Below the pieces are notes generated by a model. It was not told the DNA's origin, searched no databases, and was given only the letters and a program-made list of their open reading frames with translations. From Blastocatellia bacterium (lineage in GTDB: Bacteria; Acidobacteriota; Blastocatellia; UBA7656): DNA of 64,000 nucleotides. The DNA lies in NCBI GenBank assembly GCA_963765495.1, contig CAVXWP010000006.1, positions 32,001 through 96,000 of the forward strand, in the 5' to 3' direction. A program made the position numbers and the translations under genes. Below are positions 9,337 to 11,860 of the stretch, piece by piece. The first letter of the stretch is position 1. The number at the start of each line of letters is the position of its first letter.

Positions 9337-10347
9337 ATGAGTGAAGCAGCAAATGACAAGGAAAATCAGATGCAGGCAGCGCTTGCGAAGATAACCGGCA
9401 GAGTGACGCGCAAACGCCTTGCCTATTGGATGCGGATGGCCGGTATGATCACATTAGGCACGGCCGGGTCGCTCACCTTGCTGATCGGCGCGGCGAGTTA
9501 TCCGCTTTCGGAATTGCTTATTCGTCCGAGGCTCAAGCGCCTTTTGCATCTGAAAAGCCCGCACCTGAGACGTTTGATAGAGCGTTTGAGGATCGAGTTT
9601 GAAGATGTGATAATCCGGTCATTCGATGGAACGCGGCTCTGCGGATGGTGGATGCAAGCGGGGGAATCGGCTCCTACCGTAATCGTGTTGCACGGCGTAA
9701 AGAAGAATCGCACGGATGTATTGCGCACGGCGTTGATGCTCAGACAAACCGGGTTCAATGTTCTCATCCTGGACGGGCGCGCCCACGGAAACAGCGAAGG
9801 CCGCTTTGTCACCTACGGATTTAACGAAAGGCGCGATGTTGAGACGGTCATCGAGTGGCTGATTGCGGAAAAAGGGATCGATAGAGATTTGATCGGGCTT
9901 GCAGGAGAATCAATGGGCGCGGCAATCGCCTTACAGGTAGCGGCTCATCATTCGTGGATAAAGGCGGTCTGGGCCGACAGCCCGTTCGCTTCCTTGCGCC
10001 GCATAGCCTCGGAGTACGTTCGCCGCGTGACGGGTCTACCCGATTCGGTCCTGACCCCTGTGTTGTGGACTACGCTCAGAGTAGCCAATTACCGTGGCAA
10101 ATTCGATGTTGATCTGGTTGATCCCCTGAAGATGGCGGCAAAGATACAGGCGCCCGTCTTTTTAGTGCATGGCACGGCCGATCAGTTGATTGAAACCGAG
10201 CATTCAAAAAATATCTACGACGCGCTTTCGGGCAAAAAGGAGCTATGGTTTGTCGAAGGCGCGCGCCACGCCAGATGCGCCCGTTTCGCCAAGCAGGAAT
10301 ACGGCGACCGCGTGACCCGATTCTTCCTTGAAAACCTGAAGAAGTAA
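9337..10347 (+). CDS. Alpha/beta hydrolase
   Basis: VIVLHG, DGRAHGNSEG, nucleophile elbow GESMG, VHGTAD, GARH. Confidence 0.9.
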   Translation: MSEAANDKENQMQAALAKITGRVTRKRLAYWMRMAGMITLGTAGSLTLLIGAASYPLSELLIRPRLKRLLHLKSPHLRRLIERLRIEFEDVIIRSFDGTRLCGWWMQAGESAPTVIVLHGVKKNRTDVLRTALMLRQTGFNVLILDGRAHGNSEGRFVTYGFNERRDVETVIEWLIAEKGIDRDLIGLAGESMGAAIALQVAAHHSWIKAVWADSPFASLRRIASEYVRRVTGLPDSVLTPVLWTTLRVANYRGKFDVDLVDPLKMAAKIQAPVFLVHGTADQLIETEHSKNIYDALSGKKELWFVEGARHARCARFAKQEYGDRVTRFFLENLKK

Positions 10348-10378
10348 GAGCTTCGGCATATTTAAATTTTCGCGCATA

Positions 10379-10408
10379 TTGACACTTTCGCGTAAGGTCT
10401 GGTAACTT
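10379..10408 (+). promoter_or_regulatory. Sigma-70 promoter for tRNA-Asn
   Basis: Perfect -35 TTGACA (10379-10384), 18-nt spacer, -10-like TAACTT (10403-10408), 26 nt before the tRNA. Confidence 0.6.
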
Positions 10409-10468
10409 ACCCATTCCTTCGAAAGAAGGATTTTTCCTGAGTAGCTCAATGGCAGAGCATCCGGCTGT

Positions 10469-11361
10469 AAAGGATGAATGATCTTTGCAGCTTCCACAGG
10501 TGACTGTGGTTGAAAAACTGGGTGAATTCAAGGAAGCCTACGCTGGCTACGGTCAGTAGGGTAACCCTGAGCGAAGCCTGCTAAAAGGTAGTGCGCTTTT
10601 GAGTGCGCTGTCGGCAGGAACGTGCAGAGACTGAGATTGTGTTGCAATGAAAGTTCTACCATTGGTAGGAACGGAACTCAGATCTGCTATTGTTGGAATG
10701 GTGGCTGGAGACGCCGGGATCAGGAAGCAAAAAGGCTGCCGATCTGTGAGTCTCCGGATTACTCATGCTGAGAAACAGAGAGAGTATCTTGAATACAAAA
10801 GAGATATCCTCCAAAATCTGTTTAAGGGATGGGAAATTCCTATCAGACCAATCAATAATAGCGGATATCCAGGAGTCAGACTGGAAACTCGCAATCATCC
10901 CAAACTAAGAGCCATTTATAAATGGTTTTATAGCGAGGGAAAAAAGCGGTTTTCGAGGCAAATTCTCAACTATCTAACACCCATCGGGGTTGCTATTTGG
11001 TATATGGATGATGGTTCTCTCTCTTACAAGAAAAGAGAGGGAAAGGTTCACGGAAGAGAGGTCCATCTCAATACTTACTGCTCATTGGAGGAGGCTGAAG
11101 TTATCCAAGCCTACTTCAAGGAAGTATGGGATGTCTCTTGGACGGTGATTCCAAATAAAGGGCTTTTTCGGCTTAGGATGGGATCGAACGGGGCTAAAAA
11201 GTTCTTTATGATCATCAGTCCGTACATAATTCCGATGATGAGGTACAAAATAGATTTGGGGTACGTAAAGCAACACGATCAAAGCGCCCGGCAACTTTTT
11301 TCAATGCCAGAAGAGAGTTGATGAGATAGTCCGCCCCTATGTGAAAACATAGGATCAAGCG
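10469..11361 (+). ncRNA. Group I self-splicing intron (IC3-like core), 893 nt
   Basis: P1 CTGT|AAAG pairs with CTTTGCAG, giving a U.G pair at the splice site; P2 CCACAG-GTGA-CTGTGG; core elements GAATTCAAGGAAGCC, AACCCTGAGCGAAGCC, GTGCAGAGACT, GAGATAGTCC; P9 CCTATGT-GAAA-ACATAGG; terminal G at 11361. Confidence 0.92.
10647..11321 (+). CDS. Intron-encoded double-motif LAGLIDADG homing endonuclease
   Basis: Motif 1 AIVGMVAGDAGI and motif 2 LTPIGVAIWYMDDGS (LAGLIDADG_2-type); basic 224-aa protein; AT-richer than flanking genes; lies inside the intron. Confidence 0.9.
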   Translation: MKVLPLVGTELRSAIVGMVAGDAGIRKQKGCRSVSLRITHAEKQREYLEYKRDILQNLFKGWEIPIRPINNSGYPGVRLETRNHPKLRAIYKWFYSEGKKRFSRQILNYLTPIGVAIWYMDDGSLSYKKREGKVHGREVHLNTYCSLEEAEVIQAYFKEVWDVSWTVIPNKGLFRLRMGSNGAKKFFMIISPYIIPMMRYKIDLGYVKQHDQSARQLFSMPEES

Positions 11362-11414
11362 TAACCGGAGGGTTGTAGGTTCGAGTCCTACCTCAGGAGC
11401 CATTTTTTAGGAGC

Positions 11415-11449
11415 AGAGGGTCATCATTTCGATGGCCCTTTTGCTTTCT
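11415..11449 (+). terminator. Rho-independent terminator after the tRNA
   Basis: AGGGTCATC-ATTTC-GATGGCCCT stem-loop followed by TTTGCTTTCT. Confidence 0.65.
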
Positions 11450-11860
11450 TAGCGCCTTTAAGAAATATCCCTGTCTAAAGCCGCGCCCGGCTTCTATATA
11501 ACCAATTGCCGGTTCTCAGATCATTCTGAAACCATCGTATTATTTCTTACTATTAACTTTACTGTGTTTGTGTCGCTCTCTCTATGGCGTCGGCTTTAGC
11601 TTGACCATAACCCGCCCGGAGTATAATCTTGTTCTGTCTGCAACGATGCAGAAGCCATCCGGTCTTGAGTGGTAGCCGGTATGTCTCCACGATTTGCCAC
11701 TTGTGGAGATTCGCAATGTCGGCACATATCAATCGCCTCGATAACAGAGCACCGTTTCTGGCCCTCGCTTATCCTGGGTGAGTATTTACCTTGCCGGCAA
11801 TGATACGCGCTTCCTGCTGCGAGCAGCAACGCCCCAGGTGAAGTCGCTCTGTATTAAAGT

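Follow-up and report, generated by a model that had tools for sequence, protein, structure and literature searches.

How can a bacterial group I intron carry a homing endonuclease gene that reads through helices of its own ribozyme core, inside a tRNA gene for which the genome seems to hold no substitute? The question is raised by a tRNA-Asn(GTT) gene in a 64,000-nucleotide (nt) stretch of DNA from a Blastocatellia bacterium (contig CAVXWP010000006.1 of assembly GCA_963765495.1, positions 32,001 to 96,000 of the forward strand), hereafter called the window, whose own numbering is used throughout. Our answer, which we hold with good confidence, is that a mobile group I intron occupies the anticodon loop of the sole tRNA-Asn gene, that a LAGLIDADG gene sits in the loop of its P7.1 hairpin, and that the open reading frame (ORF) of this gene runs passively on into the ribozyme core.

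With introns allowed, ARAGORN called a tRNA-Asn(GTT) gene with an encoded CCA at positions 10435-11402, interrupted by an intron of 893 nt; at its default settings it found no tRNA in the window, where the long insert hides the gene. The intron (10469-11361) splits the anticodon between bases 35 and 36 (U35/U36), and relatives whose tRNA-Asn genes have no intron, such as ...GGCTGTTAACCGG... at locus L009, leave the exon junctions in no doubt. The exon base at -1 is a U held in a wobble pair, U10468.G10487, inside an 8-base-pair (bp) P1, and the final intron base is G11361. At gathering thresholds Rfam gave no match anywhere in the window, the long insert again hiding the intron. At a relaxed threshold the group I model RF00028 aligned over its full length (1-253), scoring 35.2 bits (E=4.6e-7) across 10459-11353; this alignment uses the P3 and P8 helices listed in Table 1 and puts the entire ORF into a single insert that immediately follows the P7 5' strand. 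Each of four ORF-less homologs tested scored 79.8-88.7 bits against the RF00028 gathering score of 50, and in all four the P7.1 hairpin is inserted at the model position where the ORF of the window is inserted. An unconstrained minimum free energy (MFE) fold of the 893 nt recovered the 11-bp P7.1 stem, P3, P8 and P9 (z = -9.5, 20 shuffles).

The secondary structure was further examined by covariation among 33 homologous Acidobacteriota tRNA-Asn introns, aligned from P1' to the last base, with the structure named from the window. The set was drawn from loci up to L152, of which 41 have both exon anchors 100-2500 nt apart and 33 are distinct; L049, which encodes a protein with 90% identity and is cut by a contig end, was left out of the count. 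In the named structure 93.5% of alignment cells are paired. Shuffles give 87.8%, and shifting the partners by 1-3 columns gives 32-44%; 30 pairs are changed on both sides, a number reached by 0 of 500 shuffles (a count of shuffles and not a probability). The core helices P2, P3, P4, P6, P8 and P9, which are 94-100% paired, appear to be kept by compensatory change (2-6 pairs each), with P3 and P7 in pseudoknot order. These results bear out an earlier reading made from the letters alone (the sequence-only reading), which had named the P3, P8 and P7.1 pairings and had set the ORF in the P7.1 loop after the P7 5' strand; its coordinates for the stem, P3, P8, P7, the ORF and the stop at 11319-11321 all agree with the sequence.

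A P7.1 hairpin is seen between P7 and P3' in 33/33 introns. In the window its closing stem comprises 11 bp, including one G.U, and was found independently by a repeat finder (pair I2). The repeat alone proves little, because comparable imperfect 11-nt inverted repeats occur elsewhere in the intron (3 of the 8 listed pairs are 11 nt long at 91% complementarity); its support comes from position, covariation and fold. The extended stem can be scored in the seven LAGLIDADG introns only, where it is mostly paired and shows UA->AU and CG->AU changes. The basal 5 bp covary in the 26 introns that have no LAGLIDADG gene (at pair 3, 12 introns have A-U and 13 have G-C; at pair 4, 20 have G-C and 5 have A-U; L003 is off register by one base), and because they do so we regard P7.1 as a genuine element of the ribozyme. 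To our knowledge, this hairpin is not a feature of subgroup IC3, to which the classical bacterial tRNA introns belong.

The loop of P7.1 in these 26 introns (e.g. L134 and L137) is itself strongly conserved, reading GAGGAnCC..AACCrATAA. A CAACC-like stretch within it is complementary to a GGTTG run at the 3' end of P2 (10508-10512), which is invariant except for one G-to-A change in L151; a tertiary contact between the two may have been lost in the ORF-bearing introns. In P4, the window intron has an A.C mismatch (10531/10567) where 27 of the 33 introns have G-C and 5 have A-U.

The ORF, assigned to the LAGLIDADG family by the sequence-only reading, indeed matches the profile hidden Markov model PF03161 (LAGLIDADG_2) at E=5e-34 and 118 bits against a cut-off of 25, with residues 12-186 spanning the entire profile (1-168 of 168). 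Among PDB entries, I-SceI chains match residues 13-202 (E about 1e-10), and the motifs VAGDAG (D22) and YMDDGS (D121, D122) align with LGDAY and FMDDGG of I-SceI. We take the acidic residues of the two motifs to be catalytic. The GD and DDG motifs are kept in 7/7 LAGLIDADG introns, and across 46 sequences no change is seen at D121 or G123, while D22 and D122 hardly vary. An AlphaFold model (46 homologs) has a mean predicted local distance difference test (pLDDT) score of 93.1, its last helix spanning residues 196-202, and the closest folds returned by Foldseek are those of I-SceI and I-WcaI (PDB 1r7m and 6x1j; template-modelling score 0.75-0.76, 22-23% identity, E about 3e-15). The protein is thus predicted to adopt the monomeric, pseudo-dimeric alpha-beta LAGLIDADG fold. 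Over codons 2-207 the ratio of non-synonymous to synonymous substitution rates (dN/dS) is 0.048-0.115 in 18 of the 21 pairs formed by the seven LAGLIDADG introns, the other 3 pairs being saturated at dS; judged by these ratios, codons 2-207 are under strong purifying selection. The N-terminus of the ORF is intact and common to close homologs. The G+C content of the ORF is 43.3%, as against 54.3% for the window, a difference that speaks for mobility.

The 3' end of the gene behaves differently. The ORF has no stop of its own and ends at a TGA, 11319-11321, on the border of P8 and J8/7. No stop occurs before P3' in 7/7 LAGLIDADG introns, and the frame relative to the P3' anchor is 0 in the window, L051, L054 and L135, 1 in L022 and L023, and 2 in L055, the same RNA being read by frame as ..SARQL.., ..RPATF.. 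or ..APGNF... The seven ORFs end 26-70 nt beyond the P3' anchor. The J8/7 TGA on the P8/J8-7 border closes five of them, a P8-loop TAG closes another, and the last stops 9 nt short of the intron end, at a TAG in the P9 3' strand. Motif sorting of 36 close protein clusters (P0001-P0036) gave three frame classes of 8, 6 and 13 members, with 9 short or other, and in these clusters the tail that follows the conserved ..YKIDL measures 4-36 residues. In the model of the window protein the folded part ends at about residue 203, and pLDDT is 74 for residues 201-210, 55 for 211-220 and 70 for 221-224. The GATGAGATAGTCC part of the junction string is invariant or nearly so in 33/33 introns, ORF-less ones included. 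With the T before it, this part contains TGA, TGA and TAG, which end two of the three frames; the first TGA is the stop of the window ORF. Because the junction is also invariant in ORF-less introns, the J8/7 stops were not shaped for the ORF. The tail lies outside both the I-SceI alignment and the confident part of the model, and appears not to be needed by the protein. On the evidence of these comparisons, the overlap is passive read-through ("core creep"), in which constraint acts on the RNA but not on the peptide tail. The sequence-only reading had described about 50 nt of core as dual-coded. The overlap and the core creep stand, at 54 nt by our count (11268-11321); a constraint on the peptide does not, given three frames, different stops and a fold that ends at about residue 203.

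Translation of the ORF would begin very close to the ribozyme. The ATG at 10647 lies one base past the P7.1 5' strand, which falls within the expected ribosome footprint, and the 22 nt upstream of it, CAGAGACTGAGATTGTGTTGCA, have GAGA where four of the other six LAGLIDADG introns have GAGG; the sequence-only reading was right that the ATG abuts the stem and that the window copy has no clear Shine-Dalgarno (SD) sequence. In two LAGLIDADG introns GGAG precedes the start by 7-10 nt, and TTG serves as the start codon in two. In all seven, the start codon follows the P7.1 5' strand by 1-6 nt, and in six of them SD-like GAGG or GGAG lies within that strand. Because these purine runs and the start codon are in or beside the P7.1 stem, the folded ribozyme would be expected to hinder initiation, and a translating ribosome would in turn open P7.1, P3 and P8. 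The competition between translation and splicing that the sequence-only reading proposed is a reasonable expectation.

Table 1. Features of the interrupted tRNA-Asn gene in the window (positions of the window; covariation values from the 33 introns)
Feature	Position	Strand	Evidence
tRNA-Asn(GTT) 5' exon, last base U10468 = U35	10435..10468	+	ARAGORN; identical to 5' half in relatives' intron-less tRNA-Asn genes
Group I intron, 893 nt, omega G 11361, preceding exon base U	10469..11361	+	RF00028 full-length alignment; junction from L009
P1: exon GGCUGU + intron AA (10463-10470) with UUGCAGCU (10485-10492); 14-nt loop 10471-10484, similar to leader of HNH gene in sister introns	10463..10492	+	Sequence, RF00028, P1-loop comparison
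P2 hairpin CCACAG-GUGA-CUGUGG	10494..10509	+	100% of cells paired, 2 pairs changed on both sides
P3 5' strand CTGGGTG, partner 11285-11291	10518..10524	+	97.8% of cells paired; CG->UA in 5 sequences, GC->AU in 2
P4-P5-P5a-P6 domain	10528..10618	+	P4 98% and P6 100% paired, both with compensatory changes
P7 5' strand GACU (GACT), partner AGTC 11328-11331	10629..10632	+	Invariant 33/33
P7.1 5' strand GATTGTGTTGC, closes stem around ORF	10635..10645	+	Inverted repeat I2, MFE fold, homologs
LAGLIDADG homing-endonuclease ORF, 224 aa, predicted I-SceI-like two-motif monomer (GD 21-22, DDG 121-123)	10647..11321	+	Pfam, PDB, AlphaFold, Foldseek, dN/dS
Overlap zone (54 nt): codons 208-224 + stop, also P7.1', J7.1/3, P3', P8	11268..11321	+	Codon positions; tail beyond fold
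P7.1 3' strand GCAACACGATC	11270..11280	+	Covariation, MFE fold, inverted repeat I2
P3 3' strand CGCCCGG	11285..11291	+	RF00028, covariation
P8 hairpin, 10 bp (11292-11301 with 11311-11320), 2 G.U, 9-nt loop	11292..11320	+	93.8% of cells paired, 5 compensatory pairs; RF00028
Junction string GTTGATGAGATAGTCC: last P8 bases, J8/7, P7 3' strand AGTC 11328-11331	11318..11332	+	Sequence
P9 hairpin, GAAA loop	11336..11353	+	98.3% of cells paired; 6/7 pairs changed on both sides
tRNA-Asn 3' exon with encoded CCA	11362..11402	+	Sequence, ARAGORN
Terminator-like hairpin + T tail, 3' of tRNA	11415..11441	+	Sequence scan

The consequences of the insertion depend on whether the host has another tRNA-Asn gene. 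ARAGORN lists 49 tRNAs in the 17-contig genome, and no uninterrupted tRNA-Asn was found by it in this assembly, which is 97.9% complete. In 3/3 LAGLIDADG-intron genomes searched (97.9, 94 and 89% complete), an intact 23-nt target was absent with up to 3 mismatches allowed. The interrupted gene is thus the only tRNA-Asn gene found, with genome incompleteness possibly still hiding another, and for that reason the intron must splice if the cell decodes Asn with this gene. Run over the whole genome with introns allowed, ARAGORN made 11 intron calls. Two others labelled tRNA-Asn (L155, L156) gave no tRNA or group I match at E<=0.1 and were treated as false, and a call labelled Arg(tct) (L154) holds an ordinary 67-bit tRNA. 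A separate observation concerns tRNA-Leu(UAA), which is missing from the ordinary tRNA list of the genome and is called at G000:C12:68327-68642 (L153:128-443) with a 229-nt insert at the classical CUU/AAAA site; the Rfam group I model gave no match to this insert even at E<=10.

In addition, several lines of comparison point to mobility. The same hydrolase gene lies upstream of tRNA-Asn at loci with the intron (L003, L004, L022, L138) and at loci that lack it (L011, L012, L014), so that a single chromosomal site is polymorphic for the presence of the intron. In a DNA search of 41 related genomes, the 5' half of tRNA-Asn was found in 36 and a homologous intron in 7, the genome of the window included; the close relatives belong to the Acidobacteriota (Blastocatellia, Pyrinomonadaceae). 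The intron core occurs in 46 of 401 genomes sampled from the class, with a patchy distribution within genera, and in 8 of 401 sampled from the phylum, where tRNA-Asn is again the host gene for at least 2 of the 5 matches that fall outside the class. The LAGLIDADG carriers are dispersed over a tree of the ribozyme core, with 5 changes by parsimony, at least 2 of which well-supported branches force, and some carriers are sister to introns that are empty or hold remnants of an HNH gene. The close LAGLIDADG family (62-91% identity) lies in tRNA-Asn at 7/7 checkable loci in the Acidobacteriota.

Two observations concern relatives of the protein elsewhere. One is P0035, a LAGLIDADG protein with 55% identity from a cyanobacterium, Argonema galeatum; its tail, ..ATAPD.., looks like a frame-2 read-through of P3', and it may reside in a related intron. 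Relatives with 36-39% identity lie inside tRNA-Leu(taa) genes called by ARAGORN in metagenomes, in inserts of 850-911 nt (L059, L060, L062/L063); Rfam searches of the L062 and L059 inserts gave no group I match at E<=0.001.

The 33 introns differ in what they carry. Fourteen have no insert and measure 241-269 nt, six, with that of the window, hold a LAGLIDADG gene in P7.1, eight hold in the P1 loop an HNH gene that measures about 312 nt (L005, L007, L129, L133, L134, L137, L140 and L147; L005 lacks a long ORF), four hold only HNH remnants of 42-79 nt in the P1 loop, and one, the metagenomic L054, holds both genes. This last intron (L054:518-1706) interrupts tRNA-Asn and is 1189 nt long; its P1 loop holds the HNH gene (115 aa) and its P7.1 the LAGLIDADG gene (221 aa), both apparently intact. 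The HNH genes comprise about 105-130 codons, and Pfam assigns the P1-loop ORFs to HNH or HNH_2 with scores exceeding the cut-offs. They too have no stop of their own, ending 15-96 nt inside P1', P2, J2/3 and P3, in one frame only (..HAGxLQLPQVTVVEKLGEF..); that of L137 ends at a TAG made by a P2 variant. P1 loops of 16-79 nt, in the window intron and in L022, L143, L144, L008 and L006, retain the leader of the gene, its last codons or both, L022 keeping both ends. The P1 loop of the window, AAAGGATGAATGATCT (16 nt, 10469-10484), resembles the leader ..GCATGATCTTT.. of HNH-bearing introns. It seems from these resemblances that the window intron, and more clearly that of L022, descends from an HNH-bearing intron that later lost the gene.

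We propose that the ribozyme is an ordinary small bacterial tRNA intron, of about 240-270 nt without inserts, with a short extra hairpin, P7.1, between P7 and P3', and that an I-SceI-type LAGLIDADG gene replaced the conserved P7.1 loop of about 18-20 nt. The extended 11-bp stem would draw together the ends of the 616-nt insert, so that the core could still fold, and the intron would self-splice in vivo. Translation would run through P7.1', P3' and P8 until the ribozyme supplies a stop, making the 17 extra residues a by-product. Any ribosome translating the precursor before splicing would open up P7.1, P3 and P8, with the result that translation and folding would exclude each other on any one molecule. 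This clash is probably kept small by weak initiation, the start and SD-like bases being in or beside the P7.1 stem, and translation of the excised intron, which would avoid the clash, may contribute. The protein would cut intron-less tRNA-Asn genes near GGCTGT/TAACCGG and so bring about homing. Cleavage of the intron-less allele, which the sequence-only reading placed in the anticodon arm, is a reasonable supposition, consistent with the patchy intron at a syntenic locus, the intact motifs and the low dN/dS.

Some of our own results weigh against this reading or narrow it. The window intron itself scores below the RF00028 gathering score, which only its homologs exceed; P7 is invariant in 33/33 introns, so covariation is uninformative for it; and P5 as drawn (10537-10540 with 10557-10560) is unpaired at two columns in 32/33 and 23/33 homologs, a pairing that was rejected since it found no support among them. 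The sequences behind the covariation are related, and their anchors were picked from the window sequence. The comparison of tails is likewise limited to seven LAGLIDADG introns that are related to each other, and some of the short protein tails may be contig truncations. Lasting purifying selection where the genome holds no target fits ongoing horizontal homing and a second, maturase-like role equally.

Read-through that is passive on our account might instead be a selected regulatory device, in which ribosomes unfold P3 and P8 and thereby trade endonuclease output against splicing. The ORF is open into the core in all seven LAGLIDADG introns, with the start 1-6 nt after the P7.1 5' strand in each and SD-like bases within the strand in six; the HNH gene overlaps P1', P2 and P3 likewise; and the 2014 review of bacterial group I introns (PMC3984707) notes core-overlapping ORFs and states that translation disturbs intron folding in bacteria. 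What is conserved, however, is solely the absence of an earlier stop: the frame and the stop position vary, and so does the extent of the overlap (26-70 nt past P3'), as drift predicts; early ends are seen in at least 9 of the 36 close protein clusters, some of them apparently short of P3'; and J8/7, being invariant in ORF-less introns as well, does not have its stops there for the ORF. We consider such a device unlikely, if still deserving of attention. Another idea is that the LAGLIDADG protein is kept mainly as a maturase for an ORF-swollen ribozyme, instead of or besides homing. Splicing is essential here, purifying selection is strong (dN/dS 0.048-0.115) even though three carrier genomes hold no target site, and LAGLIDADG maturases exist, with bI3 and I-AniI among the Foldseek matches; the same review mentions a LAGLIDADG protein of a bacterial 23S intron with maturase-like activity. 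This idea is harder to reconcile with catalytic acidic motifs that are intact in 7/7, with closest structures that are pure endonucleases (I-SceI and I-WcaI), with carriers scattered on the core tree, as a mobile gene predicts, and with 14 of 33 introns having no ORF and 8 having HNH only, so that the ribozyme family is generally independent of the LAGLIDADG protein. We accordingly give it a rather lower likelihood. Its stronger form, that where the only tRNA-Asn gene carries this 650-nt insert and no target site is left the endonuclease has become indispensable to the host through a maturase-like role, and that termination at the P8/J8-7 border ties the amount of protein to the fraction of unspliced precursor, is more doubtful again; if true, a "selfish" gene would have supplied a feedback that limits itself, within an essential bacterial tRNA.

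A last alternative would make the ORF a decaying relic, unexpressed or inactive, with read-through as the first step of degeneration. The lost stop, the unclear SD sequence of the window copy (GAGA in place of the GAGG of four of the other six) and the decay of HNH genes of the same intron family to remnants of 36-79 nt would all suit it, but the ORF is full-length with an intact N-terminus common to close homologs, its motifs are intact, dN/dS does not exceed 0.115 for dS as high as 2.8, and the AlphaFold model is confident; we regard this alternative as highly improbable. A mobile intron with passive read-through is thus the reading we prefer.

At the borders of the locus, a second terminator-like hairpin with a T run (10415-10430) ends 5 nt upstream of the tRNA gene, and a simple sigma-70 promoter scan of 10300-11500 returned 0 sites. 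For 10380-11450 a search of sequencing runs listed no RNA data set, and the best DNA run contained 0.35 of the sampled words.

Taken together, the interest of this element lies largely in its relatives, since a single Acidobacteriota tRNA-Asn ribozyme family is found empty, with HNH, with HNH remnants, with LAGLIDADG or with both. HNH and LAGLIDADG genes alike lack their own stop and are ended by the ribozyme, and the LAGLIDADG tail occurs in all three frames, which makes the family a clean natural test of core creep. Because the intron interrupts the only tRNA-Asn gene found, splicing of this ribozyme would be essential even with P3 and P8 inside an ORF, and it would offer a convenient bacterial system, free of translated exons, for studying interference between translation and ribozyme folding.

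The ingredients are textbook ones: a group I intron in a tRNA gene, a homing gene of the LAGLIDADG family and an ORF running into the ribozyme core. This kind of arrangement is well documented, the GIY-YIG enzyme I-TevI being one example; what is new is the host gene, tRNA-Asn, and the bacterial group. I-SceI and I-WcaI, which come from yeast mitochondrial rRNA introns, share the monomeric two-motif LAGLIDADG fold with the window protein; their solved chains have no counterpart of the 3' read-through tail, and the target here would be a tRNA gene. Distant relatives of about 30% identity lie in 23S or 16S rRNA genes of candidate-phyla bacteria (L025, L026, L045), again a different host gene. 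The endonuclease of the cyanobacterial tRNA-fMet intron, I-SspI, is a PD-(D/E)XK enzyme and so differs from the present case in both tRNA and enzyme family; it was reportedly described by Bonocora and Shub in 2001.

Among bacterial tRNA introns, Williams 2020 brought the number of interrupted tRNA gene types known from 4 to 21, left intron ORFs unanalysed and noted that introns above about 400 bp possibly contain genes. The introns of that study have in common with the present one a small anticodon-loop intron that self-splices (here by prediction), a U at -1 in a wobble pair of P1 and an omega G. In its numbering the site described here would be Asn position 4 (CUGU/UAA), and the Asn type may already be among the types it lists. 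The searchable literature, which did not extend to the type list of Williams 2020, yielded no description of a bacterial tRNA-Asn group I intron or of the present element; the available portion of the 2014 review (PMC3984707) makes no mention of Asn or of core creep, and PMC5733544 deals with other cyanobacterial tRNAs.

The closest parallel for the overlap is the td intron of phage T4, as set out by Edgell, Chalamcharla and Belfort 2011 (PMC3073962). There, as here, the ORF occupies a peripheral loop and its 3' end extends into the core as far as the next in-frame stop. The I-TevI overlap covers 20 nt and 6 residues, compared with 54 nt and 17 residues in the present intron, and the td host is a translated phage gene, whereas here the host is a tRNA gene and the enzyme a LAGLIDADG protein. 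The same source predicts that extensions arising by core creep should be variable in length and dispensable. Judging from the variable frames, stops and tails compared above, both predictions appear to hold in the tRNA-Asn introns of the Acidobacteriota.

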